Virus record (IMG/VR): IMGVR_UViG_3300033388_005412
Coordinates: 96,001 to 160,000 of that record
DNA from: a virus
Taxonomy: Duplodnaviria > Caudoviricetes
Strand: one strand, 5' to 3'
Length of the DNA stretch: 64,000 bases
The notes under the pieces are model-generated. The model made no database searches, had not been told where the DNA came from, and saw only the letters and a list, made by a program, of their open reading frames with translations. The stretch's first letter is position 1; the number at the start of each line of letters is the position of its first letter. Positions 3,901-55,030 of the stretch are shown here, piece after piece. A program made the position numbers and the translations under genes.

Positions 3901-6900
3901 TATATTTCGCTCTGGATGACTATGACAAAATTTAGTTTTTATAACATATAAGGGATGGTTATGTGTTAACCACACATTTTCAAAATTGTTATATAATCGA
4001 ATTTTATATACTTTCTCATTAACTAGTCTACTACTTTTTTTAATAACTTTTGTATAATCAAATCCAAAAACATTAGCACCTTTTTGTATATCTTGAATTT
4101 CTACAACTTTCATATTTTTAGTTACAATCATACTATCTTCAGTTAAACATATAGGATTAACAGTTTCAATCTCACCACTCATACCCCTTGGCCGCGGCAC
4201 AAGTCGGCGCCAAAGCTCTGTATTATGAACCGCAATACCTTCTGCAACATAATAATTTAAATCTTGTATCTGTAAATCGTACACATCAACATTTTTATCA
4301 TTTAATTGTTCAACTTTTTTAACTTTTATAAATAATTTATTATCATAAATAAAAGAATTTCCATTTTTAAAATCAGAAATATCCATACTTTTATCATATA
4401 ATAAATTATATATGCCAATAGATGACTGCTTATTCCAATGAATATAACTACTAATGCCCGGCTTTCTTATTGTCCCTTGAGGTAACAATCCACCACCTTT
4501 ATCATGATAATTTAAAACTAAATTACCATAAAAACCCAATATAAGTCCAATATCAAAAACATCCTTCACAAAATTAGACGAACACGAATGAAATCCAGCT
4601 TTCTTTATATTAGAATAACCATCTCCAAGTTGAACACCCTTAAAAAATTCCGAAACAATTTTTTTAGAAGATGATTTTATTATGTAATCTATTTTCTTAT
4701 TCTCAGCTCTTTTACCACATAATTGTGTAGCTAATATAGATAACGGTATACATTGTATTCTTAAAATTAATGTATTGTTTTTTACTTTTAATGTACCAAA
4801 ACTACCAAATTTAATTCGAACAATTTCTAATATTTGTTTTGCATATGCTATTTCATTTTTGTTCATCACAAAAGAAACTCGTCCTCCCTTTTCAACATAA
4901 CCCTCAGCCGCATACCATCCCAACAAATATGAAATACTCTCATCAATTTTAACATATCGATTAAACTTATATATTGTTACTCCACGTCTATGTTCCCGTA
5001 TAGCATCTTTAGCAATTTTATCAGAAATTCCATGATCTCGTAATTCTTTACGAGTATAAAAATTACTTGAAAGTAATTTTCGCGCCTTAATATATGATAT
5101 ATACCTCTGTTTATTTTTTATATTATTTGAATACATAAATTCATTATCGTGATACCTATCAGTATACTTTGATAAATCAATCACATATTCTTTCCCTTTC
5201 GGCTTTACAATTGGAACGACACAATAATCGCCCGGTTTGATGTCCTTAATATTTGTATCACACACCTCGATCTTGCTATTTCTTCGGGAACAAAAAAGAC
5301 ACTTCGCTTTATTTCCAGGAATACATGGTCTTGTATTTTTGTGAGAACTATCAATACACCTCGTTCTTTTAAATATCGGAATATGGTGTTTTGATGTTCC
5401 TATTAATTCAGTATTAATAGTGGCCAATTTCATCTTATATAAATCAGATGCTTTTTTATGAATTTTATCAACAACATTATGTAACTCGCCGTCTAACGAT
5501 AAAACTTTATCACCAACATTTACATCAATAATTTTTTTTAATCCATTATCGGTCGAAATATCAGTATCGGATAGAAAACATGCACCAGTTGGGTCGCCCA
5601 TATTCTGATCCCAAAATGCTCTTCTGAATGATGTGATGTCATTTGATGACGCCAATACCGGATTATCCTCAAACGTACGAGCGAAGCCAAGCATTTTTTT
5701 ACTCATTGTCTCGGCTCCGAAACCCCATAATCCCATATATTCAGTTAAATTATATAATTGTTTATCAATTGTTGATTTCACACCTGAAGCACTCATCGGC
5801 GCAACACCTCTCATTTCAGCGGTTCCCGGTATAAGCGGATTATCTCCGCCGCCTATTGTAACAGCACCGCCCTTAAATGCCGAAATATCGCCATGACCTC
5901 TGCCTGCATAACCCATTGACGATAATGCTCTGTCAACCTCTTCTTTATGCATTTCACGCGGCGGTAATATAGTGCGCCCAACCGTTGCGGCCAATGTTGG
6001 ACCAATAATAGGAAATTCTGAAAAAGGTACACCAGTCATTGGAAATGGCTGAGAATAATAATGACGGAACGCGTATCTTCTGCTTCCACCAAGAACATAA
6101 CCTAACGGATTAAAATCCAAAATCGGCAATGGTTTATATAAAAGCTGTTCAAGAGGATTTCCCAATCCTTCCGGAGTTGACTTATATTTTGATTTTGTCC
6201 TGGCAAACCAATTCGGTGTGAACATTTGTGTGCGATTGCCCTTCCATTGTCCACTGCTTAAAAGCCACCAACGACCTTTTCTATACGGAACCTCTTCTCT
6301 ACCGCTATATATTTCTTCTAACTCATCCTGAGATTTAGTTATATCAAATGCACCAAAACCCTGTGTCGCGCCCAGGCCGATGCCCATCAGCATACCATAT
6401 CCTGCTCCAGCCGGACCACCCCAAATTCCACCGATTTTTGCGCCTGCGGCAATTGGAACAACCGCGCCGCGCATTGCCCTCATAAACGGACTATCAATGA
6501 AACCAGGCATTAAACCTTCAGCATATTTGGCCGAATCTGTTATGCCCAAATCATCATTGACACGTGCAAAAAGCATTCGCCCCTTGACACCCTGTTCCGC
6601 AATCGCCGTGTTAAGACCCTCGTCAAATACAGTCCCGTCAAATAATGGATTCTGATCAGTTAACTTGTCGGCTATATCCCAGGCATTTATAGCTCCGGCA
6701 ATTGGTAAAACACGCTTCATCATCACACCTCTTGTGAATAAATCAGCGCCTGTTTTATATGCTTTCGGATCCAGACCAAGACCAAACCACTCGAACAATC
6801 TGGCTGATCTATTAATTGCGGCCTCAGAAAACACATTATTGAATAAAGATGATTTTTCTCCAATACCTGGCCAGAATCCATATAAACTTGTTACATCTGA

Positions 6901-9537
6901 CGGATCTCCTTCCGCAAAAAAATGAACTGGATCAGAATCACCCCTTGGGATTATACTATATCCCCCGGGTTTAAGTTCCGGCCTGAGAATTTCCATACTA
7001 GACTCAACTCTATGAAATGGCTCTGTGAACATTTTCATCCCTTTTGTGTATACAGACTCGACAGCTAATTTCATGTCTTTGTCATAATTTTTTAACATGC
7101 CGCTAACATCCTTCACAAAATCCGGAGTAGCTTTTTGACCAGCAGCATCATAATTAGCCTCAAAAATATGCCTTGTCAGCCAAACCCTCAAAGATGACGC
7201 CTGCTGCTCATTCATTAAACCCTTATTCATCATGGTTTCTGTTAAACTATTTAACGCGACTGATCCCGCGCCAGCTCCATTTTTAAGTAATTTACTTGCA
7301 GCTAAAAATTCCAGCATTTGTTCCCGACCGGACATAACATAACCGTCGGTTGTTTTTTTAGCAACACTTTTTAAAGTCCTATAATGAATATCATCTCGGG
7401 CATTATTCAACAAATGTTTAATATTATAATTTTTTAATAATCTCTCACCCTGAATATTAGCACCTTTTGCTAACTGAATCATACTAGCTTCTTTATCAAC
7501 ATTTTTAATTAATGCTTCCGGCGCCATGTCTATATCAACACCAATATTTCTCAAAATCTCAGGATTTCTAAATAATTTACTGGCTAATGTACTTGATTTT
7601 TTTAATGTTCTACGAATTGTTCTAATAAACGCGTCCCTCATTCCGGGTTTATTCGTTAACGCCGCATCTTCCAATGCCTTCAAACGCAATGGTGATTCTT
7701 GATGAAATACTTTATTCAAAACACCCTTTATATGACCAAAAACACCCGTTGTCGTGAACTTCTTAATATCTAGTGTTTTAGCAAGAAATCCGCGAACACC
7801 ACCAATATCACTTTCTAAACTATATTGCTGCGCTTTCCTACCTTCTGCGCTAAGTCCCATTGCCCTATTTATAGCAACCTCACCAAATGCGTCTGATTCG
7901 CCACTTTGAAACATTTTAAATTTAACACCCTTAGGTGTAACCCGACGCAATAATGATCCGCCTTCCTGTAAAGGATTTTTTTGAACATTATAAAATGAGC
8001 CGTCAACAAATAAACCATAATGATCGGGCTGAACCTGATAAATACCACGGCCCCTTAAAATTTTATCAGATAAATTCTTAAATCCTTTGGTTTCAATCCC
8101 ACGGCCTACCGCAAATGAATCACCTGGTTTCAACAAACGAAATGTCGGAGAATATGCCGCAATTGTATCCATTTTAAATAAACCGGGTATGCTAATATTC
8201 GTTCCTCCAACATGAAGTCTACCAAAATCAACTAAAAAATTTAATGATCTATCTAAAACTCTTTTTGGATTAATATTCCGTAAATCAATAAGTCCGTGGG
8301 CCCCCTTATAAATGCCCTTATCATAAAGAGGAATTCCCCTTTTGCTCATATGTCTCAATTGTTTTTCCCACACAACAGCGTCACGGGATCCCTTTGTTAT
8401 ATTATGTATCGCTTTATCCGATAAAATAGCCGGTCTTAGATTAAGAGCTTTCTCAAGCATATTCATTTTAGGATGCCCTTTATACCCTTTAATTGCTCTG
8501 CTGAATATACCCAGTTTCTTACGACCCGGCATTCCAGCAGCATCAAGTCCTGATATAACAGTACTCGCATATCCGGTCACTGATGGTTTGAACTCAGAAA
8601 CCCGCCTATATGCCCCTTTAAAGGCTTTTTTAGCTATATCCATGGATTTACCAGGCCTGCGCACTAAAGTCCCTAATCCAGCGTATTTGAGAGCACCAAA
8701 GAAGCTTCCAACCCCAGCCGAAATACCATATATACTGGGAATCTTATTTGCTATTTTACCTAAAACTGATGGCGCTAATTTTCCCATACCAGATAGTTCA
8801 GCACCGCCAACTATTGCGGCCCCACCAACCTCTTTGGTAAATCGAAAAGCGCCGCCTAAATTATTCATAGTCAGCAGCACCGGAAGTGTCTGTGCTGTGA
8901 ATTTTACATAATCTTTAACATGTCCAGGAAGATTATACCATGCCGGGGCATCGGCTTTTTCTCGGGCACCCGCAAATCCTAATAACTTATTAGCAAAATA
9001 TAGTGATGTTGTTGACTTCACTAATCTATTTGTATCATTAACAACTTTTCCGGTTAATCTATTACTTAAATTGTCAGGCTTCCAGAAATCTTTAATTCTA
9101 TCTCTTTCATACCGGGACACCCGCTGTGTTATTTTTCTGATATTACCATGATCACCCAATTTAAATTTCTTCTGATTTGCTTTGATCCTTGCCCAATGTT
9201 TTGTCCACTTTTCATACGCCGATGATTTTGCCGCCGTGGCTGATGTTATCTTACTTGTTAACGCTGTGTGTTCTTTTGCTACATCAGATATTAAACTTCC
9301 AATTGTGCCGCCCTTGCTGATCACCTTTTTTATAAGTGATCCACCAATACCGGCCAATGCTTTACCGCCTATTTGAACGGCTCCCATGGCTGCCATAAAA
9401 ACACCCATGTTTTTAGCAAAACCTAAAAGTGTTTTGCCTATTGAATTACCTTGTTTCTGTCGCGGGTCGCCAGAATATTGTGTTGCCGCCTTCCGCTCGT
9501 AGGGATCCTGATAAATTGTTTGTAACCCACCGGCCAT
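982..9537 (-). CDS. Tape-measure-like tail protein carrying two inteins (2851-aa precursor, about 1975 aa after splicing)
   Basis: Very long ORF directly after sheath, tube and chaperone genes; Gly/Ala-rich hydrophobic segments (GAKIGGIWGGPAGAGYG, GAWAGTLVGGPGLGTAAG); two Cys...His-Asn intein blocks. Confidence 0.75.
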   Translation of the reverse strand: MAGGLQTIYQDPYERKAATQYSGDPRQKQGNSIGKTLLGFAKNMGVFMAAMGAVQIGGKALAGIGGSLIKKVISKGGTIGSLISDVAKEHTALTSKITSATAAKSSAYEKWTKHWARIKANQKKFKLGDHGNIRKITQRVSRYERDRIKDFWKPDNLSNRLTGKVVNDTNRLVKSTTSLYFANKLLGFAGAREKADAPAWYNLPGHVKDYVKFTAQTLPVLLTMNNLGGAFRFTKEVGGAAIVGGAELSGMGKLAPSVLGKIANKIPSIYGISAGVGSFFGALKYAGLGTLVRRPGKSMDIAKKAFKGAYRRVSEFKPSVTGYASTVISGLDAAGMPGRKKLGIFSRAIKGYKGHPKMNMLEKALNLRPAILSDKAIHNITKGSRDAVVWEKQLRHMSKRGIPLYDKGIYKGAHGLIDLRNINPKRVLDRSLNFLVDFGRLHVGGTNISIPGLFKMDTIAAYSPTFRLLKPGDSFAVGRGIETKGFKNLSDKILRGRGIYQVQPDHYGLFVDGSFYNVQKNPLQEGGSLLRRVTPKGVKFKMFQSGESDAFGEVAINRAMGLSAEGRKAQQYSLESDIGGVRGFLAKTLDIKKFTTTGVFGHIKGVLNKVFHQESPLRLKALEDAALTNKPGMRDAFIRTIRRTLKKSSTLASKLFRNPEILRNIGVDIDMAPEALIKNVDKEASMIQLAKGANIQGERLLKNYNIKHLLNNARDDIHYRTLKSVAKKTTDGYVMSGREQMLEFLAASKLLKNGAGAGSVALNSLTETMMNKGLMNEQQASSLRVWLTRHIFEANYDAAGQKATPDFVKDVSGMLKNYDKDMKLAVESVYTKGMKMFTEPFHRVESSMEILRPELKPGGYSIIPRGDSDPVHFFAEGDPSDVTSLYGFWPGIGEKSSLFNNVFSEAAINRSARLFEWFGLGLDPKAYKTGADLFTRGVMMKRVLPIAGAINAWDIADKLTDQNPLFDGTVFDEGLNTAIAEQGVKGRMLFARVNDDLGITDSAKYAEGLMPGFIDSPFMRAMRGAVVPIAAGAKIGGIWGGPAGAGYGMLMGIGLGATQGFGAFDITKSQDELEEIYSGREEVPYRKGRWWLLSSGQWKGNRTQMFTPNWFARTKSKYKSTPEGLGNPLEQLLYKPLPILDFNPLGYVLGGSRRYAFRHYYSQPFPMTGVPFSEFPIIGPTLAATVGRTILPPREMHKEEVDRALSSMGYAGRGHGDISAFKGGAVTIGGGDNPLIPGTAEMRGVAPMSASGVKSTIDKQLYNLTEYMGLWGFGAETMSKKMLGFARTFEDNPVLASSNDITSFRRAFWDQNMGDPTGACFLSDTDISTDNGLKKIIDVNVGDKVLSLDGELHNVVDKIHKKASDLYKMKLATINTELIGTSKHHIPIFKRTRCIDSSHKNTRPCIPGNKAKCLFCSRRNSKIEVCDTNIKDIKPGDYCVVPIVKPKGKEYVIDLSKYTDRYHDNEFMYSNNIKNKQRYISYIKARKLLSSNFYTRKELRDHGISDKIAKDAIREHRRGVTIYKFNRYVKIDESISYLLGWYAAEGYVEKGGRVSFVMNKNEIAYAKQILEIVRIKFGSFGTLKVKNNTLILRIQCIPLSILATQLCGKRAENKKIDYIIKSSSKKIVSEFFKGVQLGDGYSNIKKAGFHSCSSNFVKDVFDIGLILGFYGNLVLNYHDKGGGLLPQGTIRKPGISSYIHWNKQSSIGIYNLLYDKSMDISDFKNGNSFIYDNKLFIKVKKVEQLNDKNVDVYDLQIQDLNYYVAEGIAVHNTELWRRLVPRPRGMSGEIETVNPICLTEDSMIVTKNMKVVEIQDIQKGANVFGFDYTKVIKKSSRLVNEKVYKIRLYNNFENVWLTHNHPLYVIKTKFCHSHPERNIVCVKNRLYKSCGTCGYNTFNEKRYKTRQQYRDYKPEWKNIEDISKYDFVGYPILKTDECYQTLDCDDFMSEYYNRNDGDKIWKYNGQGCGKRYNRFIELDYNFGFICGLYLSEGSSSSKGHVVKFALHKDERNTLALDILKWFKNKNIKGNIYKASLNGIEIDIYSTFYNKLFSKLFGSGAKNKYIDDFILYHFPKEFILGLFHGHFEGDGSIKSNVCAIKSSSPSLSLILSLRNLLLQFKCVSCVHLYKPTGSYHLTLLSEYEEKLVKLLNENYGYKIKIKNKKLRNNKKSSWHRHFFEDDILFTMVTDVQTKHYNGNVYDIQVEKGESFTTPFMLLHNCNRMPSWMTQKYKTGNPFSKIPMGELLLPGLGHETAFDINFTWPAMGEMMGMSVPDVTRMFLGLYPKRGLERATSELDRKNREIMAGANVYDAYNNISGAHDGIIRGTRGKSVQKIKNLSDSELNSFIGPTEQDISEINFYMKQTGTYEGNIQYQWRGKPVAMHPATYSEKRYDRDIAAVRQARHMAGELYSRGLGFGTEGYSHIDRLNILANTGPYSPEYKQELDIVKAQMMGGYDHEDRLNKILKKRKAIMMKEELFPYRFRGKVLTPDSEYNNMSLNEDIKAASEYSLPERFMGSVWETVSHADLPFSRKFFPYRTPLEAYKRDMLYGRSVKMWSEPYDHWIDAYSRGFMSKTTAFQGSIPGAWAGTLVGGPGLGTAAGAAVGAAYGLVHGVVNDVTGSTYIPASVRKGREINRYFDQLTYTKNNMLYQMTGDEQYLDEARGTMMGLLPSDKSGKGWTYMYRATPPQEKQHIVSFLQTTDPEERDNILKYVPAETGHLLETKWNAIDGRAIDMVVSKQQVSPMPHPNSAVYAPEVPIDDVKLVTVENEGLQSHDFGLGHYRQARRVANSPGIMPINMENPTGGIAYTPTQNYMEIKRTIEIALDRAGVHGSISLTPSLGGSNRVMVYNT
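2881..4149 (-). mobile_element. Intein 2 of tape-measure-like protein (423 aa, LAGLIDADG endonuclease)
   Basis: Starts CLTEDSMIVTK, block B WLTHNHP, ends VYDIQVEKGESFTTPFMLLHN followed by Cys; FICGLYLSEG and GLFHGHFEGDG motifs. Confidence 0.93.
4222..5580 (-). mobile_element. Intein 1 of tape-measure-like protein (453 aa, LAGLIDADG endonuclease)
   Basis: Starts CFLSDTDISTDNGLKKIIDVNVGD, ends VYDLQIQDLNYYVAEGIAVHN followed by Thr; LAGLIDADG-like YLLGWYAAEG and FFKGVQLGDG. Confidence 0.93.
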
Positions 9538-12521: not shown

Positions 12522-14438
12522 TTATTGATTAACAAGGTACTGATAATTGAACGGAGTATTTCCATTTAATCCAGCAACTGTCTGTTCCCGACGAGAACCT
12601 GTAAAAATAGCGCCGGTCGGAATACCACCCTCTGATCCTTTCCTCTCCATCAAGTCTATATCCATAGCAACATATGACATTGTGTTTTCTGTATAGACAT
12701 CCTCGATAGAATGTGTTTGACCCTCGTCGGCGACTTGTATGCCGTATATGGCCATTGTTGATTCTAAACCGAATTCATTAACATAATTTAATATTATATC
12801 AAATGAAGGTAACTGATGCGCGATGACAACTTTTTTTGTCACATCACTTTTTGATTTTGATATGTCCCATAATGCACGCTGATTAAATACATTAAATATC
12901 ATTGATCCGGCGATTGTAATTGAATTATGAGATAAAAACATACCAAATAAATTATGATTATTATCGATCTCTAAATCATATGTTTTAAAAACTCCTATTT
13001 TTTTAATTTCTTTTATTTTAACCCATTTAAATTTCTCATAACAAGATGGTTTATATTTCCGTAAAAAATCAAAAATATGTTCACCTAATTTTTTCAACAT
13101 TTCATATGTAATTGTTTTTGAATTAAGTGTTGATATCCCAGCCCCAAATTTCTTTCTAATATTCAATTTATTATGTTCAATATAATCTCGCAAATCCTGA
13201 TATTTATATCCTAAATTATTCTTTAAAGATTCTAAAATATTTTCGTATCTTTCTTCTTTGCCAAAAATTCCAATTTCTGTTAAAAATCTATAATGATATT
13301 CCGCAGGTATAATAACATTATATGAATCATGTTTTCTTATAATACCCCATTTATTTTTCCTATTTTGTTCTTCATTTACCGGATTAAACCCTATATATGA
13401 ATATATACCCACTTTAGACAACAACTGCTTAATTTGAATAGCTAATTTATGGGAAGTTGTAGAATACGAAATTCTCACAGAATCATTTATTTTCTTTTTT
13501 CTAACATGTATAGTTCCGTCTGTTCCCCAAATTCTGTTCAAAAATAGTTGGGTTTGCGATATTGACATATTCATTAATAAATCAGGAACAGTTTTTTCAT
13601 ATGATTTTTTGCCATAAATTCCCAACGAACGTGTCCAAATAATGAATGGTTTGTAAATTCTTTGAGCCCAACCAGTTGATTTTTCACAATTATGAATTGT
13701 AATATTATAACAATTTCTATCAAATCTTTTATGATACGACAAATTATTTTTTAAACATTCATCTTCAATGTCCTTAACAATTTTCGCATCATAAACACCG
13801 GGTGTGAAAGAAAACCGCTTTTCTTTACCATTTTTATATAAACCAAATACACCATCACCAATTGAATATGCCATAAATTTTATATAATAATCAGGAATAT
13901 TGATATCATCATTAACTCCATAATCTAATGGGATCATTAATTCATCATTAACAATTAATTCAGAAACCGTTTTCCATCCTTCTTTAGTATAAACTAAATG
14001 TGTTTTAGTTAAATCCATTTTAGAACTATCTTGTAATAAAACAGAATAACATTCCTGTGAACCCTTATAAAATTTATTAGTGCACTTTTGGTATGAAACT
14101 TGATTGTTCTTCTCATCCAAAGATAAAATTTTATCACCAATAAAAATATCTTTTACTTTTTTATATCCTTTATCAGTATAAATAAGTTCATCACTAGCGA
14201 TACATCCTCTTGTAAATCCGCGAACTCTGTTACGCCCAAGTGTTCTGACGGCGCCCTTATCCTGATGTATACTGTAACTTAAAGTTGCTATATCTCCGAT
14301 GACAAAAATTTGATCTTTGCCTTCCCGATCCCGGCCGACACATACCGGGATAATATCGCAACCACTATATGTTGATCTCTCACGCCAGGGGGCTGTATCC
14401 AGACGAAAAAATGGTGTGTCGGCACCCCTGTTTTCCAT
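12522..14438 (-). CDS. Tail-tube paralogue interrupted by an intein (638-aa precursor, 211 aa spliced)
   Basis: Exteins TYSGCDI...LSYSIHQDKGAVRTLG...RG|SITIAGSMIF match tube motifs ISYSITRQKAPIYTMG...RGIAGSMI. Confidence 0.8.
   Translation of the reverse strand: MENRGADTPFFRLDTAPWRERSTYSGCDIIPVCVGRDREGKDQIFVIGDIATLSYSIHQDKGAVRTLGRNRVRGFTRGCIASDELIYTDKGYKKVKDIFIGDKILSLDEKNNQVSYQKCTNKFYKGSQECYSVLLQDSSKMDLTKTHLVYTKEGWKTVSELIVNDELMIPLDYGVNDDINIPDYYIKFMAYSIGDGVFGLYKNGKEKRFSFTPGVYDAKIVKDIEDECLKNNLSYHKRFDRNCYNITIHNCEKSTGWAQRIYKPFIIWTRSLGIYGKKSYEKTVPDLLMNMSISQTQLFLNRIWGTDGTIHVRKKKINDSVRISYSTTSHKLAIQIKQLLSKVGIYSYIGFNPVNEEQNRKNKWGIIRKHDSYNVIIPAEYHYRFLTEIGIFGKEERYENILESLKNNLGYKYQDLRDYIEHNKLNIRKKFGAGISTLNSKTITYEMLKKLGEHIFDFLRKYKPSCYEKFKWVKIKEIKKIGVFKTYDLEIDNNHNLFGMFLSHNSITIAGSMIFNVFNQRALWDISKSKSDVTKKVVIAHQLPSFDIILNYVNEFGLESTMAIYGIQVADEGQTHSIEDVYTENTMSYVAMDIDLMERKGSEGGIPTGAIFTGSRREQTVAGLNGNTPFNYQYLVNQ
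12924..14204 (-). mobile_element. Intein in tube paralogue (427 aa, LAGLIDADG endonuclease)
   Basis: Starts CIASDELIYTDKG, block B LTKTHLV, ends TYDLEIDNNHNLFGMFLSHN followed by Ser; FMAYSIGDG and FLNRIWGTDG motifs. Confidence 0.93.
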
Positions 14439-33394: not shown

Positions 33395-33625
33395 TTAATA
33401 ATTCTCCTGATCCTGATTTATGTGCCGTTTACCGCCAAAATTATTAAGAAAAAAACCCAAACCCGCGGCAGATCCAAGAACAATACCGGTTTTGGCACCC
33501 CTTCTCTTTAAAAACTGACTCAATTTTATATTCTTTTCGCTCATTGTCTGCAGCATTCTGATAACACCCTTTGCGCCATTTATAGGATTATTCATTATCT
33601 TCTCCTTCATCGGTTTTATCGACAT
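33395..33625 (-). CDS. Small hypothetical membrane-associated protein
   Basis: GIVLGSAAGLGFFL segment; GAAGGAGA RBS. Confidence 0.5.
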   Translation of the reverse strand: MSIKPMKEKIMNNPINGAKGVIRMLQTMSEKNIKLSQFLKRRGAKTGIVLGSAAGLGFFLNNFGGKRHINQDQENY

Positions 33626-35282
33626 CTTTTATTTCGCCGTCCATAACAACATTAACATCATGCTGCTCCTTCAATTGTCTAGCGTGTTCTCTTAATTTTG
33701 CCGAATAAGTTGAAGCATCATCCTTCATAGACGTAAATAATTTGGTTTTAGATTCCCTGGTTGCGACCATGCTTTTTAATATTTTATCCCGGCGGGCCTG
33801 AACCTTTGTTTTAACACTTAATGCAATATGTTCTTCTTTCCTTATCAACGCCTCGCCGGTTTGCTCATTGATGCCAACAACATTTTCCATGATAAATCCT
33901 TCAGTTGCCAAATAGGCATTCGCCCGGGCATTCAATATATCAATCTCAACAAGCTCCATAACTAAAGCCCTTTCAATTTTATCATCCCAATCTGCTTTCA
34001 ACGATACGATATACTCATCCCGCCATTTTTCCATATAAAGCTGCTCAAACGGACAATTATGAGTTGCAATTCCACCAGCAACATAAGTTTTATGTTTATC
34101 AACATCCAGTGAATAAACTAAACCCTTATAGTTTTCCTTTTTTACTGAAACCTCGACCCATTTTGTTTTTTCATACGTACTCCCATAGCCATATTCGAAT
34201 TTACTTTTTTTATCCTCAAACGTCGGAACATCCATAACACCCGAAATAATATTACAAGCCCTTATAAACATAGGCCATTTAACATATGGGCCCATTTCAG
34301 GATCATTTGAAAATCTACCCTTTTTCCACATGGGATATTCAATTGAAAGACCCAAAGAATTTAGAAATAAATCATACACACCATCATCCTGCAATAAACT
34401 TTCATGATGTTTTCGCATTTGTTCTGGTGTTGCCCATTTATACACACCATCCCATTTAGAATCAACTTTTCGCAAAGAATCAATAAAAGAAAGCCTACTT
34501 GTTTGCGTCTTTAATGAATAATATTCCTCTGCTAAATATGCCTCAGTATTTGTATTATAAACACCCAAAATCCACAATTTATCAGCATCTTCAGAAACAG
34601 CCCGTGAAGCAAAATTCATGTGCAATTTATGCCCATGTGTGCTATTTTTTATTCTATGAATTAATTTAGTTTTTCCTATCCTCCAAAAACGACCTCTTTT
34701 CATTAAATAAACACAAAATTTGCCTATCGCGTTTTCATTAAATTTTGCTGCTGATATATGATCATAAGTTACTTTATGTGAATGATTATTTTTTGTTAAT
34801 AATGTAACAACACATCCATTAAATCCATGTGACGACATTGAAAAAGAATAACCCTTTTTTGCTCCTTGCCTACCTTGCACAAATACACCATGTTTTCTAT
34901 CCCACCCTATTAATCCGTGTTTAGACGGATTTAATTTTTCCACAGGAACATATCCATCCTGAATTGTGTATATTAATTCACCAGGGGGATGACAAAGATT
35001 TCCAAGGGGTGCTTTTTTCGCCGCTTGAAGAGGACATTGTGCCGCAATTGAACATGCGTCGCCCAAACACACCATGGGAACAGATTTAAAATCACCACTC
35101 CCATGGAACCCCAAATATCTACCAATGTTTTTAATATCATCAGGTGTTAATTTTAAAGCTTTAACATAGTCCTCATCGCAAAATTTAATTAAATTACTAA
35201 CATTCATATTTTTAATTTCACTAACCTGTATAACACCCGACGGACTAATCGTTTGCAATTCTTTTGATTTCTTGTCTGACAT
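33588..35282 (-). CDS. Putative terminase small subunit-like protein carrying an intein
   Basis: Start moved to ATG 35282 for RBS spacing; helical C-extein (EHIALSVKTKVQARRDKILKSMVATRE) and position upstream of terL; spliced product has C-x4-C-x5-C-x13-C. Confidence 0.55.
   Translation of the reverse strand: MSDKKSKELQTISPSGVIQVSEIKNMNVSNLIKFCDEDYVKALKLTPDDIKNIGRYLGFHGSGDFKSVPMVCLGDACSIAAQCPLQAAKKAPLGNLCHPPGELIYTIQDGYVPVEKLNPSKHGLIGWDRKHGVFVQGRQGAKKGYSFSMSSHGFNGCVVTLLTKNNHSHKVTYDHISAAKFNENAIGKFCVYLMKRGRFWRIGKTKLIHRIKNSTHGHKLHMNFASRAVSEDADKLWILGVYNTNTEAYLAEEYYSLKTQTSRLSFIDSLRKVDSKWDGVYKWATPEQMRKHHESLLQDDGVYDLFLNSLGLSIEYPMWKKGRFSNDPEMGPYVKWPMFIRACNIISGVMDVPTFEDKKSKFEYGYGSTYEKTKWVEVSVKKENYKGLVYSLDVDKHKTYVAGGIATHNCPFEQLYMEKWRDEYIVSLKADWDDKIERALVMELVEIDILNARANAYLATEGFIMENVVGINEQTGEALIRKEEHIALSVKTKVQARRDKILKSMVATRESKTKLFTSMKDDASTYSAKLREHARQLKEQHDVNVVMDGEIKDVDKTDEGEDNE
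34056..34994 (-). mobile_element. Intein (313 aa) with non-LAGLIDADG, GIY-YIG-like core
   Basis: Starts CHPPGELIYTIQDG, block B VTYDH, ends VYSLDVDKHKTYVAGGIATHN followed by Cys; core CVYLMKRGRFWRIG...EAYLAEE. Confidence 0.9.
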
Positions 35283-35730
35283 AATTATCATCCTCCAACT
35301 GTTTATAATTAAATCTCACAACACGCCATCCGTTTTCTTTTGCTATTGCTTCTTTTATTCTATCATTTCTTTTATATTCCTCAAATTTTTGCTTAGTTTT
35401 GTGCATCATTTTATTAAACTGAAAATGCTGCCTGCCATCATATTCAATAATCAATTTTTTTCCAGGTACAGCTATATCAAATCGTCTATATAACAAAAAA
35501 GGAAAAACTATTTCTTGAAAAACAGGCTCTTTAAAAACACACCCATTAACAACATCTCTAACTGTTCTAAACACCATTGTCTGACCTTCGGATACTTTTT
35601 TTCTAGGCTTCAACACAACCATATTATATTTTTTATAATAAATATATTTCTTCCTGTGCCTCTCACATAAAAACCCGGATTTTATTCCATCGGCGCAGAC
35701 CCAACACGTTCTGCATTCCTTTTGTTCCAT
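35245..35730 (-). CDS. DUF559/Vsr-like PD-(D/E)xK endonuclease
   Basis: RFDIAVPGKKLIIEYDGRQHF...D.IK...GWRVVRF signature; Cys-rich N-terminus. Confidence 0.78.
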   Translation of the reverse strand: MEQKECRTCWVCADGIKSGFLCERHRKKYIYYKKYNMVVLKPRKKVSEGQTMVFRTVRDVVNGCVFKEPVFQEIVFPFLLYRRFDIAVPGKKLIIEYDGRQHFQFNKMMHKTKQKFEEYKRNDRIKEAIAKENGWRVVRFNYKQLEDDNYVRQEIKRIAND

Positions 35731-38746: not shown

Positions 38747-38832
38747 TGGAGCCGGCGAGAGGATTCGAACCCCCGAGGACTTACGTCACCGGTTTACAAA
38801 ACCGGTCCTATCAACCACTAAGGGACACCGGC
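38747..38832 (-). tRNA. tRNA-Thr(UGU), 86 nt, long variable arm, CCA encoded
   Basis: Acceptor GCCGGTG/CGCCGGC, anticodon stem CCGGT/ACCGG with loop TTTGTAA, TTCGAAT T-loop, U73-CCA. Confidence 0.82.
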
Positions 38833-39218
38833 AATTTCTTTGCACGACCTCTTCCAAAATGAGCTGCCATGCATTTTCGATTACAATAAAAATCTTTTTG
38901 CCCAGCTTTTATTTTATTCTTAATTCTATTTGCTCTTTTATTCTTTAATTTTCCGCAAAATGTACACCGAATTGTTATCATAGCTGGCTTGGATGCATGC
39001 CCGCTCGCATGTCTTTTTCTATCAGTTAATTCTAAATTTTCTATACGATTATCATGTATATCTCCATTAATATGGTGAACAATTTCACTGCTTTTTAATA
39101 TTCTTCCTATCTTTTGAGACATAACCCATCGATGCTTTAAAATCGCACCATTTCTATTTGCCATAGGATTCCCAATCTTACCACAAACATAATCATAAAA
39201 TTTTTTTTTATTTTCCAT
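38811..39218 (-). CDS. HNH homing endonuclease
   Basis: HRWVM...[16 protein letters not shown]...H; C-terminal CTFC...YCNRKC; its 3' end overlaps the 5' end of tRNA-Thr. Confidence 0.88.
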
Positions 39219-39243
39219 TTTATTCAAATATTCCTAAACATCT

Positions 39244-39270
39244 TTACTCTACCAACTGAGCCACACCCTG
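39244..39270 (-). pseudogene. Isolated 5' half of a tRNA
   Basis: CAGGGTG TG GCTC AGTTGGTA GAGT (acceptor 5' strand plus perfect D-arm); no matching T-arm follows, the HNH gene does. Confidence 0.6.
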
Positions 39271-39279
39271 TTTTTTTTT

Positions 39280-39353
39280 TCGAGCGGGCAGGATTTGAAC
39301 CTGCGACCTTCGGGTTATGGGCCCGCGAAGCTACCAAACTGCTCTACCGCTCT
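39280..39353 (-). tRNA. Initiator-type tRNA-Met(CAU), no encoded CCA, C33
   Basis: 1:72 mismatch, A11-U24, three G-C pairs closing loop CCCATAA, TTCAAAT T-loop. Confidence 0.82.
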
Positions 39354-39360
39354 TCATATA

Positions 39361-39438
39361 TGGTACCGATGGTGGGATTCGAACACACACCTGTCAGCAT
39401 TTTAAGTGCTGTGACTCTACCAATTGGTCTACACCGGC
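39361..39438 (-). tRNA. tRNA-Leu(UAA) with short (6-nt) variable region, CCA encoded
   Basis: Leu-type D-loop AATTGGTAGA, stem CAGCA/TGCTG, loop CTTAAAA, A73-CCA. Confidence 0.78.
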
Positions 39439-49310: not shown

Positions 49311-49643
49311 ATGAAAAAGAAAAAAGCTAAAATTGGTGATATTATCAAAGCATCAAGGGATCTCAAAACTCTTTCACCTGAAAAAAGATTAAGCAAACTT
49401 CGAAAACTTATAGATGAAATACCATCATCTAAAACACCACATAAGAGTAAGATAAATCATGTCATTCCACGGTGCAATAGTCCGCTATTTGCCAAACCAG
49501 AGTGGATAAGAGATAATTGTATATATTCACCTAAATATGGGTACATAATCAAACCAAATTGGATGAGAGATAATTGTCTATGCTCGCTCAAATCATTAAT
49601 GGAAGCTGCAACAAGTGGATTGAATATTGAGATTAAAGACTAA
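49311..49643 (+). CDS. Hypothetical protein
   Basis: AAGGAGG RBS; internal repeat WIRDNCIYS / WMRDNCLCS. Confidence 0.6.
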   Translation: MKKKKAKIGDIIKASRDLKTLSPEKRLSKLRKLIDEIPSSKTPHKSKINHVIPRCNSPLFAKPEWIRDNCIYSPKYGYIIKPNWMRDNCLCSLKSLMEAATSGLNIEIKD

Positions 49644-49652
49644 GGAGGTAAA

Positions 49653-49898
49653 ATGCAAATAATAGCAAATCTGATAATTCCTGATTATATTTATGAAAAT
49701 GGAAAAATCATAAAATATAAAAAATTATCAGACAAACAAAAACAGAATGTGAGAAAACAATGTCAACACGTAAGTATACTAAAACAACAACGCATGAAAA
49801 GGATGAAACAACATACTTCGATCGACATACAGAAACTTAATGGAGCATTCACTGCATCGGATCTTGAAAAAATAAGAAAAATAAAGGAGGTAAAATGA
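49653..49898 (+). CDS. Hypothetical protein
   Basis: AAGGAGG RBS. Confidence 0.55.
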   Translation: MQIIANLIIPDYIYENGKIIKYKKLSDKQKQNVRKQCQHVSILKQQRMKRMKQHTSIDIQKLNGAFTASDLEKIRKIKEVK

Positions 49899-50125
49899 CT
49901 AAATTAGAAATAGAATTTATGAAAAACTCGTTAATTTTCATTAAGAAATATAGTGAGTCTGATAAATTCAAAATTAAAAATCATACGGACTGTGCTCATC
50001 ATGTTGTGTTGTTACATAACAAAGATCTTAGTGCAGTAGATGGAATGAAAACATATAAAAAAGGAACAATGAAAGAAAAAGATATAAAAATGTTATTTGG
50101 ATATCACACAAAGGAGGTAAAATGA
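49895..50125 (+). CDS. Hypothetical protein
   Basis: ATGA coupling. Confidence 0.55.
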   Translation: MTKLEIEFMKNSLIFIKKYSESDKFKIKNHTDCAHHVVLLHNKDLSAVDGMKTYKKGTMKEKDIKMLFGYHTKEVK

Positions 50126-50268
50126 CAAGAAATCAATGGATTGGTTTAGGAGTTGTGGGAGTTATAGGCATAATTGCTTATAAGAAAAGAAAGAAGATTG
50201 CCAAAGTAACAAAGGAGATGTGGGACAAGGGAAAGAAAGCCTATGAAAACGAAAAGGAGGCTAAATGA
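50122..50268 (+). CDS. Small membrane peptide (48 aa) similar to the HIRAN protein anchor
   Basis: MTRNQWIGLGVVGVIGIIAYKKRKKIAK; AAGGAGG RBS. Confidence 0.6.
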   Translation: MTRNQWIGLGVVGVIGIIAYKKRKKIAKVTKEMWDKGKKAYENEKEAK

Positions 50269-50519: not shown

Positions 50520-50542
50520 GATAATGTATTACTACCTGGAAT

Positions 50543-50798
50543 GGCCGCCGCAAGGCGGCCTCAATAAATAATGAATACTCAAAATCACCAAAATCAACAA
50601 AACAGTACTCAAATCAGTAATCAAATCAACAAAACAGTACTTAAAACAATAAATCAAATAATTAAATACAAATGTGATGAAATCACAAATCAAATAGTAT
50701 CAAACAATATCAAATAGTATCAACTATTATCTATTATATATAATAGGAAGAAACAAAGAGAAATGGTGTTAAATGAAGGCGGCCGCGGAAGCGGCCTT
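50543..50798. other. Non-coding AT-rich repeat tract bracketed by two GC-rich GNRA hairpins
   Basis: GGCCGCC-GCAA-GGCGGCC at 50543-50560; GGCCGC-GGAA-GCGGCC at 50781-50796; internal repeats AAATCAACAAAACAGTACT x2 and CAAATAGTATCAA x2. Confidence 0.75.
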
Positions 50799-50844
50799 GA
50801 ACCGATTGTCATATAGTAAAATATGAACAGCCAAAGGAGACAGA

Positions 50845-51156
50845 ATGTCAGAACAAGAACTGAGATTATGTGGAATGTTGGATGCTGTACCTGCCCGGTT
50901 GGGATGGGTATTTCAAAAGGATGCCGATTTGGTAGCCAGAGAGGAGTATCACAGAGAGTTCGGCGATTTGGAGGCCGAAGAGGCGATTTCTGTGAGTGAA
51001 GAGGTGATCAGCACTTGGCTTGTTGGCGGTGAAGGTCCGGTCATGACATGTGTTGGTGTACGTAAGTATTACAATCTCATGGATAAGATCGAAAGGAGGA
51101 TGGTTGAACTGAAGCATGATGTGATGCGGGTTGCCGAAATTACAGACACACCCTAG
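50845..51156 (+). CDS. Hypothetical protein, paralogue of 46665-46931
   Basis: LCGMLDAVPA...DLEAEEA...KIERR. Confidence 0.68.
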   Translation: MSEQELRLCGMLDAVPARLGWVFQKDADLVAREEYHREFGDLEAEEAISVSEEVISTWLVGGEGPVMTCVGVRKYYNLMDKIERRMVELKHDVMRVAEITDTP

Positions 51157-51166
51157 AGGAGAGATA

Positions 51167-51340
51167 ATGAAACATAAGATTGAATTAAGGACTAGAGATG
51201 GAACAGCTCGTGAACTTACTTTGATCATTAAACACAAATTAAATGATGGCAAGATTATAAAACTGTCTAAACATGCGGTTTTATTCAGGACTCTAACAGA
51301 GTCTTATGTTAAGGCAAGTAGGAGGAAAAAATGGAAATGA
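51167..51340 (+). CDS. Hypothetical protein (57 aa)
   Basis: GAGGAG RBS before ATG 51167. Confidence 0.5.
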   Translation: MKHKIELRTRDGTARELTLIIKHKLNDGKIIKLSKHAVLFRTLTESYVKASRRKKWK

Positions 51341-53316
51341 AAATGAATGTCATTAGTGACCTGATTGTCGCTGAGTTCCTTTATAAAGGAATTGGCGAAA
51401 AGTTAAGGGAAACGGCGAAATTGAAAGGTGCTGAGAGAAAACATGTAATGGGTAGGAGCCATCACATAAGTTTTCTAAGAAACAGGCCGAATTTAAGAAG
51501 GATATTCGAAAATACCTTTACAATTATGAAGGACAACGGTAGTTATACCGATGATGAATATCTTGATGTTTGTAAGAGGGCCAGGGAATCCGGTTATGTG
51601 CCGCAATGGAATGTTAAACGTGCTCATGGAGGAGGCCAGGGCGCTCATGCATGCGGTAAAATAGAATTCGGTAAATCTCAGATCATAGAAGATATCCTTA
51701 AAGAGGATAATATGCTGGAAGAATTTAGAAATCTTCCTATTGAGAAGAGATTAAATAGAATTCAGAAGCTTATAGGTGAGATGACAAGGTTTAAAACAGA
51801 ACCTAAAGTTAAGATTGGGTTTGCCGCCAAAACATACAATGGTATTGTATGGGCAAAACCGAGCTGGATGAGGCTTAATGGTATCTCAATGGGCGCGAAG
51901 ACCACAAATGTGTTAAAGTCTCTAATTATGCCTCTGGAGGCCTTGGAAGTGACTGATTATGACATGCTTGTGAGTCCGGAGGAAAATAAATTTAACTTAA
52001 GTGAGGAAAAGCTTGGTTGTTTAATCAGGTGGGTTCCAAGATTATCACCTAAATCTTTGTTCAGCAGGAACTTAAGAAGGAAGTTTTCAGATAAGCTTGG
52101 AAGAAATCCCCAGATGAAATGGGATTTATTAAGCTTGGTTAATCATATTCCGGATGTTGACTTGTCACATGAGAGGGATATGTACGAGAAGGGGCTTATC
52201 ACAGAAGAAGATGTAAAGGCTTTATTCGGTTATGAAAAGAATGGAGAAACAGTGATTCGCCCGGTAGGTAAGCGTATCCTGGCCGGGGAGTCTATATTTC
52301 ATCCGGATATATGGGTAGAGCTTGAAAAACCTTTTAAGAAAATGGTTTTGAATAAGCTGCAGCCGAGAATCAAGGGTATTTATGGAGTGGCTATGCCGAA
52401 ATCCATGTTAAAAATGATACCGAATGAGGCGATTTACTATAAAGCATGGGTTACGAGGTATCCCTGGGTTCTTCCTATTCTTACAAAGATAGGTGTATGG
52501 GAAGGTATGATATTTGTTGATGAAGAGTTATGGGAGATGTTTGGTGGTGATTTTGATGGTGATCAGGCAGCTGCATTTGATTGGGATTCTTTGACAACTG
52601 ATCTCTATCTGGATAGGGATAAAGAGTGGCTGAAGAAGGCCATGAAGATGCCTGTTAAAGAGCCGGCTAACTTTGAAGGCAGAACAGAAGAAGAAGTTAT
52701 AGCTAAGCAGCTTAGTCAGTATTCAGGCTGTGGAACTGTGTATAATAATGCTATGACTATAGTGGATGCTGCCAGGGCCGCGGAGTGGAAGTTTAATGAT
52801 CTTGTAAAGCTGCAGGCTTATTTGTATGCTAACATAGTTCAGCCTTTTATAGATGGGTTCAAATATAAAGGCGCCAACCATGTACCAAGTCTGTATGACA
52901 TGGTTACAAGAGTTGATGATAAGTTTGATTATCTTTCTATGAAGGAAACAATGAGACTTCGTGATTTTTATAGAGCAATAAGAAGCCGCGGTAGTTTTAT
53001 GGATTTAACTGATGTGGCTAAACTCGCCAACGCTGATTCTAAAAGCTTTTATGAAAGAGTTGTCTCTATCTTCAAGGGGTGGAAAAGAGGTGATTATATC
53101 CCGGTTCCCGCGCTTGATGAGACCATCGCGAAAACAGTGAAAACCAGTTTTGTGAAGTATGGCCGTAATGTTGAGGCGAGATATGATAGCTTTAACTATT
53201 TGATAACAAGTACTGAAGTACTGAAGGAGGTAATAAGAAATTGTTATGAGAGAAAGGATTACAGTTTGGCTGAGTATTTAGTTGTGAAATTGAATGTTGT
53301 TGCAGAGGAGGTGTAA
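51331..53316 (+). CDS. Single-subunit two-barrel RNA polymerase (YonO/cellular RdRP-like), 661 aa
   Basis: Catalytic GGDFDGD preceded by VTRYP; first-barrel motifs NGIVW...K...LKSLIMP...SPEENKF; downstream GTVYN and FIDGFK as in QDE-1-type enzymes. Confidence 0.8.
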   Translation: MEMKMNVISDLIVAEFLYKGIGEKLRETAKLKGAERKHVMGRSHHISFLRNRPNLRRIFENTFTIMKDNGSYTDDEYLDVCKRARESGYVPQWNVKRAHGGGQGAHACGKIEFGKSQIIEDILKEDNMLEEFRNLPIEKRLNRIQKLIGEMTRFKTEPKVKIGFAAKTYNGIVWAKPSWMRLNGISMGAKTTNVLKSLIMPLEALEVTDYDMLVSPEENKFNLSEEKLGCLIRWVPRLSPKSLFSRNLRRKFSDKLGRNPQMKWDLLSLVNHIPDVDLSHERDMYEKGLITEEDVKALFGYEKNGETVIRPVGKRILAGESIFHPDIWVELEKPFKKMVLNKLQPRIKGIYGVAMPKSMLKMIPNEAIYYKAWVTRYPWVLPILTKIGVWEGMIFVDEELWEMFGGDFDGDQAAAFDWDSLTTDLYLDRDKEWLKKAMKMPVKEPANFEGRTEEEVIAKQLSQYSGCGTVYNNAMTIVDAARAAEWKFNDLVKLQAYLYANIVQPFIDGFKYKGANHVPSLYDMVTRVDDKFDYLSMKETMRLRDFYRAIRSRGSFMDLTDVAKLANADSKSFYERVVSIFKGWKRGDYIPVPALDETIAKTVKTSFVKYGRNVEARYDSFNYLITSTEVLKEVIRNCYERKDYSLAEYLVVKLNVVAEEV

Positions 53317-53317
53317 C

Positions 53318-53854
53318 ATGGATAAAAGACTTTTGATTGGATTAGGTATTATAGGCGGCGCGCTTGGTGTCGTTGCCTATAAAAAGAGAGAAGAGCTTGC
53401 TGTGTTTGGGAAGAAAATGCTGAAAGCGTATATGATAGGCGCCAGACAGCATGAGGAATATATGTATGGTGATCCAGATGCGGCAGTTGGTGATATGCTT
53501 GATGGCGTTGGTGAACTTGCCAGGGCTGATGATAAGTATATCTCACATTTCTTTTCGTTTCATGCGACAGGTGTGACGTTTAAAGATAGACAGGATCTTA
53601 TAAGATATACGAATAAGGACACTGGCTTGCATTTTAAGAAGAATCCTGTTGAAGAAGACAAGAATGCTGTGGCGATTGTGGATGATCATAGTAGAATTCT
53701 TGGTTGGGTTCCTAGAACCATAGCTCCGCATATAGGTGGTAAGATGGACAAGGAGTTGATTAACATAGTGTCATGGAGAAAAGTAGGTGGGGAGAATGAT
53801 TATAAGTATGGTCTTGTTATAACTGTTGATGATAAAACAATTGAATATGCTTAG
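53318..53854 (+). CDS. HIRAN-domain protein with N-terminal membrane anchor
   Basis: FHATGVTF...NPVEEDKNAVAI...ILGWVPRTIA HIRAN pattern; LLIGLGIIGGALGVVAY helix; start moved to 53318. Confidence 0.75.
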   Translation: MDKRLLIGLGIIGGALGVVAYKKREELAVFGKKMLKAYMIGARQHEEYMYGDPDAAVGDMLDGVGELARADDKYISHFFSFHATGVTFKDRQDLIRYTNKDTGLHFKKNPVEEDKNAVAIVDDHSRILGWVPRTIAPHIGGKMDKELINIVSWRKVGGENDYKYGLVITVDDKTIEYA

Positions 53855-54627: not shown

Positions 54628-54990
54628 GTGCAGTTATGTGATTTTTGGCACATAAATCATGAAAAAGGGTTGATTTACTACTATATATATACTTAACTTA
54701 TAATATATACTAGTAATTTATTATAATATGTTATTATAATAAAGAAACCTAACTAGAATATACATAACAATTATAATAAATCTTATTATAATAAAAAAGC
54801 TTATTAAAAATAGACACTATTATTATAATAAAATATCATAAGTCTATTAATGATATACTAGTATAATACAGTCTATTTAGGACTCATTTGACGAATCTAT
54901 CATCAGAGTCCAGTAGGGGCTACACTTGGACTCATATGATAGCCGCGAGGATACGTTACAGCTAAGAATATAACTGTGCAAATACTATTT

Positions 54991-55030
54991 AATAGTACTT
55001 TATAGTACTTAATAGTACTTAATAGTATTT
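54991..55030. repeat. Four tandem 10-bp repeats (A/T)ATAGTA(C/T)TT
   Basis: aatagtactt tatagtactt aatagtactt aatagtattt, preceded by an inverted copy. Confidence 0.85.

Follow-up and report, generated by a model that had tools for sequence, protein, structure and literature searches.

A predicted single-chain two-barrel RNA polymerase of a jumbo phage and its paralogue

The DNA considered here (the window) is a stretch of 64,000 nucleotides from a tailed phage of the Caudoviricetes, positions 96,001–160,000 of IMG/VR virus record IMGVR_UViG_3300033388_005412; coordinates refer to the window unless they are said to be those of the genome. One of its genes (51331–53316, plus strand) encodes a protein, P0001, which, judging from a structural model, is very probably a small one-chain RNA polymerase (RNAP) built on the two-barrel core of the cellular RNA polymerases. 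It is considered likely that P0001 is a phage-encoded, non-virion enzyme of this type, most probably transcribing phage DNA independently of the host enzyme.

The gene and its sequence family

The open reading frame (ORF) of P0001 comprises 661 codons and a stop, and its ATG at 51331 has the sequence AGGAGG 5 nt ahead of it. Homologues start nearer to M3 or M5, making the start codon slightly uncertain. An earlier reading of the DNA, the original prediction, had listed a series of polymerase motifs in this ORF, and all of them were located in the translation: NGIVW (residues 170–174), K190 with NVLKSLIMP running to residue 201, and SPEENKF (215–221), followed in the second half by VTRYP (374–378), GGDFDGD (405–411), GTVYN (468–472) and FIDGFK (506–511).

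Among 1.84 billion cluster representatives, scanned in full, 56 relatives of P0001 were identified, all of them unnamed metagenomic proteins. Conservation was assessed in an alignment of 44 full-length homologues (19–57% identity). G171, K190, G352, D407, D409, D411, G468 and K511 are invariant in all 44, and at least 90% conservation is seen for K196 (40 of 44), D211 (42), K220 (42), P441, K443 and N472 (41). R376 is present in 29 members and P378 in 39; both are invariant among the nine closest to P0001. The invariance of key residues across this alignment shows that the predicted motifs are not a product of chance.

Named relatives were not found. P0001 has no match in Pfam, PHROGs or the PDB sequences, and neither megablast nor tblastn gave a match among 50,697 phage records. 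When the 44-sequence alignment was run as a profile against the PDB sequences, no polymerase was returned, a word-indexed profile search with the family returned no further or named relatives, and a scan of viral contigs with a closer P0001 alignment returned two loci. The profile of the QDE-1/RDR-type RNA-dependent RNA polymerases (RdRPs), PF05183, has a gathering cut-off of 23.8 bits and matches neither P0001 nor its paralogue P0061. Sub-threshold matches occur in 7 of the 44 members (best E 0.0015; one example scores 15.4 bits), and in P0053, the single case examined, the weak match falls in the C-terminal part of the profile. By these sequence comparisons, the P0001 family is a separate, unnamed family that lacks a Pfam or PHROG model.

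Predicted structure

An AlphaFold2 model of P0001, built on the 44-sequence alignment, has a mean predicted local distance difference test (pLDDT) score of 93.4 and a predicted template modelling score of 0.88, with all five models at 91.8 or above. In a Foldseek search of the PDB, only maize and Arabidopsis RDR2, QDE-1, P74-26 gp62 and P23-45 gp64 were matched at E ≤ 0.001, and only these proteins had a probability of 1.00; bacterial beta-prime chains gave E values of about 0.3–0.9. In VIA-align, maize RDR2 scored highest (Z 14.1, 448 residues aligned), ahead of the Thermus phage proteins P23-45 gp64 (Z 12.8, 417–423 aligned of 595) and P74-26 gp62 (Z 12.8); QDE-1 reached about Z 11 over some 495 residues, crAss-like phage gp66 Z 7.5 over 529, and P23-45 gp96 Z 6.2. 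The alignments to RDR2, gp64 and QDE-1 span residues 7–591 of the predicted model. Among the Swiss-Prot AlphaFold models the best match is YonO (E 1.4e-7, template modelling (TM) score 0.48, P0001 residues 60–654 against YonO 113–788); plant and fungal RDRs rank next, together with the Kluyveromyces killer-plasmid RNAP. The best rows in the ESM Atlas are RdRP-domain clusters, with TM scores up to 0.62 over 542 residues, and fused beta/beta-prime and PolD proteins are among the weaker ones. None of the matches listed in these fold searches extends over beta-flap, funnel or switch-2 elements.

The original prediction had assigned the protein to the single-chain two-barrel polymerases of the YonO/QDE-1/RdRP clade and had proposed that a model be compared with YonO, QDE-1 and a crAss-like phage RNAP. 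The model matches all three, and the assignment is borne out by its best structural matches: RDR2, gp64, QDE-1 and YonO. The predicted layout of the protein, in which DPBB denotes a double-psi beta-barrel, is as follows.

51331–53316, plus strand: gene of P0001, predicted single-chain two-barrel RNA polymerase (ORF, AlphaFold2 model, fold matches)
51331–51780, plus strand: N-terminal alpha/beta domain, residues 1–150 (model; the RDR2 and QDE-1 alignments begin at residues 7–10)
51781–52050, plus strand: first barrel (DPBB-B, beta/Rpb2-like), about residues 151–240, with G171, K190, K196, D211 and K220 (DPBB matches, conservation)
52051–52362, plus strand: helical connector between the barrels, about residues 241–344 (model secondary structure)
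52363–52584, plus strand: second barrel (DPBB-A, beta-prime/Rpb1-like), about residues 345–418, with R376-x-P378 and the Mg loop (strand–helix pattern)
52543–52563, plus strand: catalytic metal-binding loop G405-G-D407-F-D409-G-D411 (all three aspartates in 44 of 44; hhalign to ADYDGD of gp64)
52687–52779, plus strand: long helix, residues 453–483, probable bridge-helix equivalent, with G468 invariant and N472 in 41 of 44 (model, hhalign to a gp64 segment)
52792–52869, plus strand: conserved segment 3′ of the bridge helix, of putative function (conservation; aligns with IQVAVDRQK of gp64)
52888–53316, plus strand: C-terminal helical domain, residues 520–657, and stop codon (model)

The first barrel is independently verified, since residues 151–238, taken by themselves, match double-psi beta-barrels both solved and designed: Cdc48/p97 N domains and designed DPBB proteins align over about 80 residues with Z 8.3–9.0 and a root-mean-square deviation of about 2.4 Å. 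In the second barrel, the model shows strands at 349–356, 368–375, 383–390, 393–396 and 412–417 and helices at 357–362 and 398–403. By analogy with gp64, the connector at 241–344 may correspond to a clamp element (named after PMC10770324). Residues 594–660 match generic helical repeats only, and the C-terminal domain is shortened or missing in many members of the family.

Catalytic residues

Eight residues have been listed as invariant in all two-barrel RNAPs: R446, P448, D479, D481 and D483 of Rpb1 and D837, K979 and K987 of Rpb2 (Ruprich-Robert and Thuriaux, PMC2919709). Their equivalents in QDE-1 include R962/P964, the carboxylate D709 and the basic pair R738/K743 (PMC2919709). Seven of the eight can be placed in P0001, as K190, K196, R376, P378, D407, D409 and D411. 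P0001 thus has the features by which the two-barrel superfamily is recognised, namely the DxDGD Mg loop, the upstream R-x-P and two basic residues in the first barrel, and the predicted model superposes over its whole core on solved two-barrel RNAPs.

The eighth residue, the carboxylate equivalent to Rpb2 D837 and QDE-1 D709, is expected before the lysines, where the only conserved acidic column is position 170, beside G171. This position is Asp or Glu in 28 of the 44 members and P, N, Q or Y in 12; it is Asn in P0001, Asp in P0017 (82% identical to P0001) and Glu in the paralogue P0061. The difference from P0061 and from the nearest relative, which has Asp, raises the alternative that P0001 is catalytically weakened or regulatory and that P0061 is the working enzyme, and decayed copies neighbouring the gene, described below, show that the cassette turns over. 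The remaining catalytic residues of P0001 are nevertheless intact and its ORF is full length, and the partial sequences P0002 (92% identical) and P0017 contain no stop in the parts recovered. Furthermore, position 170 varies within the family, so that it is perhaps not the fourth carboxylate at all. A weakened P0001 is regarded as quite improbable.

Relationship to known polymerases

Among the nearest characterised relatives of P0001 is gp64 of Thermus phage P23-45, a crystallised, monomeric and active DNA-dependent non-virion RNAP (Chaban et al. 2024, PMC10770324; PDB 8F72 and 8F5M for gp64 and P74-26 gp62). Both proteins are phage-encoded, compact and single-chain (616 residues in gp64, 661 in P0001), with a two-barrel core and the same order of elements: N-terminal domain, DPBB-B, connector, DPBB-A, bridge helix and C-terminal clamp part. 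Both genes sit among small genes, which in the case of P23-45 are early. Sequence similarity is marginal, however, placing P0001 in another sequence family. An hhalign comparison of the P0001 family with gp64 covers 121 columns (Prob 57%, E 1e-4), taking in the Mg loop, L-P-x-K, the G...N helix and Q..D..K, and with a four-sequence gp64 profile it covers 102 columns (Prob 24%). Full-length sequence homology to the gp64 family was not found, and tblastn with gp64 matched Thermus phages only. The phages differ too: P23-45 has an extremely long tail (PMC10770324), whereas the P0001 phage is a 203-kb, contractile-tailed phage. One non-virion RNAP, gp64, is described for P23-45, in contrast to two full paralogues here, and the second RNAP of P23-45 lies in a giant virion protein, for which the P0001 phage has a candidate, P0062, recognised by motifs only.

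YonO, from the Bacillus prophage SPbeta, is likewise a single-chain two-barrel enzyme and transcribes phage genes from DNA (PMC5467207), but is 839 residues long as against 661. The likeness found between it and P0001 is structural; no protein of YonO length is among the 56 phmmer matches of P0001. A 1246-residue ORF of Bacillus phage 0305phi8-36 (207984–213047), named beside YonO in a 2010 review (PMC2919709), differs in matching the Pfam RdRP profile above its cut-off (E 1.1e-20). This ORF aligns with the P0001 family over the 26-column Mg loop and nothing more. Phage 0305phi8-36 is a cultured jumbo phage and a terminase relative of the P0001 phage, and the P0001 family profile found no member in it or in another terminase relative, Moorella phage MTATph1.

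The gp66 protein of crAss-like phage phi14:2 (PDB 6VR4) belongs to the same clade of single-chain two-barrel phage RNAPs. It is a large, virion-packaged protein, with 2166 residues in the solved chain, whereas P0001 is small and encoded outside the structural module. With the multisubunit enzymes P0001 shares the RxP and DFDGDQ motifs and the paired beta-barrel lysines. E. coli beta-prime carries NADFDGDQ. Yeast Rpb1 has 479-DFDGD-483 together with R446/P448 (PMC2919709). By these comparisons P0001 falls in the clade of phage, plasmid and RNAi-RdRP enzymes defined by Chaban et al. (PMC10770324), where its sequences form a separate family.

Earlier, P0001 had been described as unusually minimal, a view that does not hold. 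At 616 residues, gp64 has already been crystallised and is active, and RdRP-like clusters of 570–720 residues are common in bacteria. The ESM Atlas contains a 719-residue ‘RdRP domain’ cluster with 517 members (TM 0.62/0.58 over 542 residues) and a 660-residue cluster (TM 0.59/0.59); the AFDB clusters include RdRP-like proteins of 570–745 residues, and BFVD has phage proteins of 563 and 1048 residues labelled RdRP.

The highest structural score of the model is to RDR2. RDR2 and QDE-1 differ from P0001 in their length (900–1200 residues, with head and helical extensions) and act on RNA templates in silencing; QDE-1 is active on both template types (PMC9508822). An alternative is thus that P0001 is an RNA-dependent RNA polymerase like QDE-1 or the plant RDRs. 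Transcripts of the phage or the host would then be its templates, and the double-stranded or antisense RNA that it made would serve in regulation or would interfere with the host. RDR2 (Z 14.1) and QDE-1 (Z 11) are among the top solved matches, the sub-threshold PF05183 matches point the same way, and the two activities of QDE-1 would be compatible with it. However, the characterised phage members of the clade, gp64, gp96, YonO and gp66 (by the title of PDB 6VR4), are all DNA-dependent, and the similarity of P0001 to gp64 is on a par with that to RDR2. In addition, RNA-mediated control of this sort was not known in bacteria at the time of the 2010 review (PMC2919709). An RNA-copying role is considered unlikely.

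Template and role of the polymerase

Whether the template is DNA or RNA cannot be read from the sequence, as the original prediction had stated. Nor is it fixed by the fold, because the closest eukaryotic structural relatives are RNA-dependent and QDE-1 takes both templates. Transcription of phage DNA is favoured by the phage relatives; experiments have shown that gp64 (PMC10770324) and YonO (PMC5467207) transcribe phage genes from DNA.

In the proposed mechanism, P0001 would be made after infection from an operon in a plus-strand block of small genes. The location of the gene outside the structural module is in keeping with a protein that, like gp64, is absent from the virion and transcribes early and middle genes from promoters of its own. 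In the model, the first barrel (about residues 151–240) supplies the basic residues K190 and K196, and the second barrel (about 345–418) supplies R376-x-P378 and the three aspartates D407, D409 and D411 holding the catalytic Mg2+. These are followed by the bridge-type helix (453–483), a conserved QPxIDGFK loop containing K511, and the helical C-terminal domain. By analogy with P23-45 gp64, YonO and crAss-like phage gp66, the enzyme would add nucleoside triphosphates to the RNA 3′ end on a DNA template. It may read its own class of promoter, in which case one temporal gene class would be rifampicin-resistant, and its 46%-identical paralogue, P0061, would probably serve another.

Several observations weigh against this reading. 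A search for k-mers (exact and with one mismatch) in 84 upstream regions found only Shine–Dalgarno words and a weak enrichment of TTGACA, and no promoter of a phage RNAP; GC-rich hairpins are too few in the genome to act as promoter signals. The sigma-70 consensus was found at 59 sites where 46.5 were expected, and no promoter is claimed. A look for sequencing runs containing the gene yielded none. A sigma-like gene lies near P0061, so the host RNAP would also be used. The closest eukaryotic structural relatives are RNA-dependent. In the protein itself, the eighth residue of the list is tentatively assigned to position 170 by motif order, and P0001 has Asn there. Finally, the second barrel is a predicted one, supported by the strand–helix pattern of the model and its position inside whole-chain alignments.

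Paralogue, remnants and a candidate virion polymerase

P0061 is encoded 25 kb downstream of P0001, at genome positions 172127–174073, and so begins 12 kb past the end of the window. It has 648 residues, is colinear with P0001 and 46% identical to it, and retains every catalytic motif that can be placed. It lies two genes upstream of P0063, the sigma-like gene, which is a weak match to phrog_1740 (E 5e-4) with a region-4-like helix-turn-helix.

A maximum-likelihood tree places P0001 together with P0003 and P0004 (support 100). P0061 falls in the seven-member clade that contains them (99/96), within which the tree does not resolve its position; its placement in this clade implies that the duplication is older than the divergence of P0001 from P0003 and P0004. 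Both paralogue lineages have been kept, since each has counterparts of 80–92% identity in other metagenomic sequences: P0002 (92%) and P0017 (82%) for P0001, and an IMG/VR protein (90%) and P0036 (80%) for P0061.

Two further features within the window bear on the number of polymerases.

49311–50268, plus strand: apparent remnants of a further polymerase cassette (tblastn, hmmsearch, BLASTP)
1–982, minus strand: 5′ part of the gene of P0062, a 2103-residue protein of the virion module, genome positions 90671–96982 (motifs)

The small ORFs at 49311–50268 match polymerase residues 119–185, then 1–80 and then, weakly, 265–302, with hmmsearch E values of 3.5e-11 and 0.0098. The piece corresponding to residues 1–80 is closer to the N-terminus of P0061 (44% identity, BLASTP E 2e-17). 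The array ends in a 48-residue piece of the 186-residue HIRAN-like gene found downstream of P0001 (BLASTP E 8.6e-5). Its sequence suggests that an additional copy of the polymerase cassette has decayed here.

P0062 contains IRFP...GGDSDGD (with GGDSDGD at residue 1671), and GMKVLVKGLTKG at residue 993, both conserved in its only homologue; a K-x-K motif is among the conserved parts. At the level of motifs it is a candidate, as yet unproven, for a virion RNA polymerase. It has no match in the PDB, Pfam or PHROG, and a scan of viral contigs was empty; hhalign aligned 46 columns at Prob 20%. An AlphaFold2 model built from two sequences has a pLDDT of 30, leaving the fold unconfirmed, and in the ESM Atlas there is a weak lead (0.87 to an RdRP cluster).

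A possible but rather doubtful extension would be a programme of three polymerases, unprecedented in one genome. P0062 would be injected and would start transcription, P0001 and P0061 would divide later gene classes or template types between them, and one of these would be coupled to a membrane-anchored HIRAN-like partner, while a phage sigma-like factor redirected the host enzyme in parallel.

Genome context

The phage record is complete, at 203,294 bp with direct terminal repeats. Its strong AAGGAGG ribosome-binding sites suggest that the host belongs to the Bacillota. A minus-strand block encodes the terminase, portal-sized and capsid proteins, a tail sheath and giant intein-bearing proteins. 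Apparent inteins occur in three proteins of this structural module (982–9537, 12522–14438 and 33588–35291, all minus strand), recognised by Cys...HN-type boundaries and homing-endonuclease-like inserts; the 2851-residue protein apparently has two. Three tRNA genes (Thr-TGT, Met-CAT and Leu-TAA) lie at 38747–39438 on the minus strand, and a search of the window with Rfam found these three tRNAs and nothing else.

The P0001 gene lies 5 kb inside a divergent plus-strand block of small genes, facing away from the structural genes. The gene layout suggests that this is an early block. Homologues of P0001 in four other contigs are likewise found in same-strand arrays of small ORFs, and one of these contigs has sigma70_r4 and SpoVG genes nearby, as does the P0001 genome. 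The immediate neighbours are as follows.

50845–51340, plus strand: two small genes, 50845–51156 (103 residues) and 51167–51340 (57 residues) (sequence, ORFs)
53294–53854, plus strand: downstream gene of 186 residues, sharing 23 nt with the end of the polymerase gene; N-terminal membrane helix (sequence, BLASTP)

The two upstream genes and the polymerase gene probably form one operon, because the gene at 51167–51340 overlaps the polymerase start codon. The downstream 186-residue protein matches phrog_18569 (E 8.7e-6), and its C-terminal domain resembles the product of the gene after the orthologue P0004 in another contig (BLASTP 34% over 116 residues, E 2.6e-26), which carries a faint Pfam HIRAN match. 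A kinship between the 186-residue genes adjoining the two paralogues was considered and rejected, the genes being unrelated.

According to the original prediction, the polymerase gene lies between two structured non-coding regions. Both regions do fold better than shuffled sequences (50530–50845, z = -4.6; 54690–55030, z = -4.0), and ‘between’ holds roughly; four small ORFs separate the gene from the second. Upstream of the operon, the non-coding stretch 50543–50845 contains two GC-rich hairpins, GGCCGCCGCAAGGCGGCC and GGCCGCGGAAGCGGCC, on either side of A/C-rich direct repeats (ATCAACAAAACAGTACT and ATCAAATAGTATCAA, each present twice). Downstream, at 54718–54830, five copies of the palindrome TTATTATAATAA occur within 115 bp, a cluster that has no counterpart elsewhere in the 203-kb genome and has the look of an operator or an origin.

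This surrounding suggests another alternative, in which P0001 would provide phage DNA replication with RNA primers or origin transcripts instead of serving as a general transcriptase. The unusual palindrome array, which occurs only once in the genome, is located 1.4 kb downstream of the polymerase, and a HIRAN-like protein is translationally coupled to it. HIRAN domains bind DNA 3′ ends. The phage encodes a family-B DNA polymerase (PolB) and a DnaG-type primase fused to a DnaB helicase, however, and because of these genes a priming role for P0001 is unnecessary; no relative in the clade is known as a primase. With the DnaG–DnaB gene present, a primase function was set aside, and a role in priming or origin transcription is held to be very improbable. 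A non-virion transcriptase acting on phage DNA is the reading retained for P0001.

Significance

Compact RNA polymerases of the single-chain two-barrel type are a small set, of which only gp64 and YonO have been characterised; with the P0001 family the set gains a sequence family that carries no annotation. The very confident model makes P0001 an easy target for expression and biochemistry, and the two paralogues kept by this jumbo phage allow a natural test of how such minimal enzymes gain promoter or template specificity. The general picture is unchanged, as phage enzymes with such a fold, size and probable role were already known. The more interesting question is whether this phage uses several polymerases in sequence.

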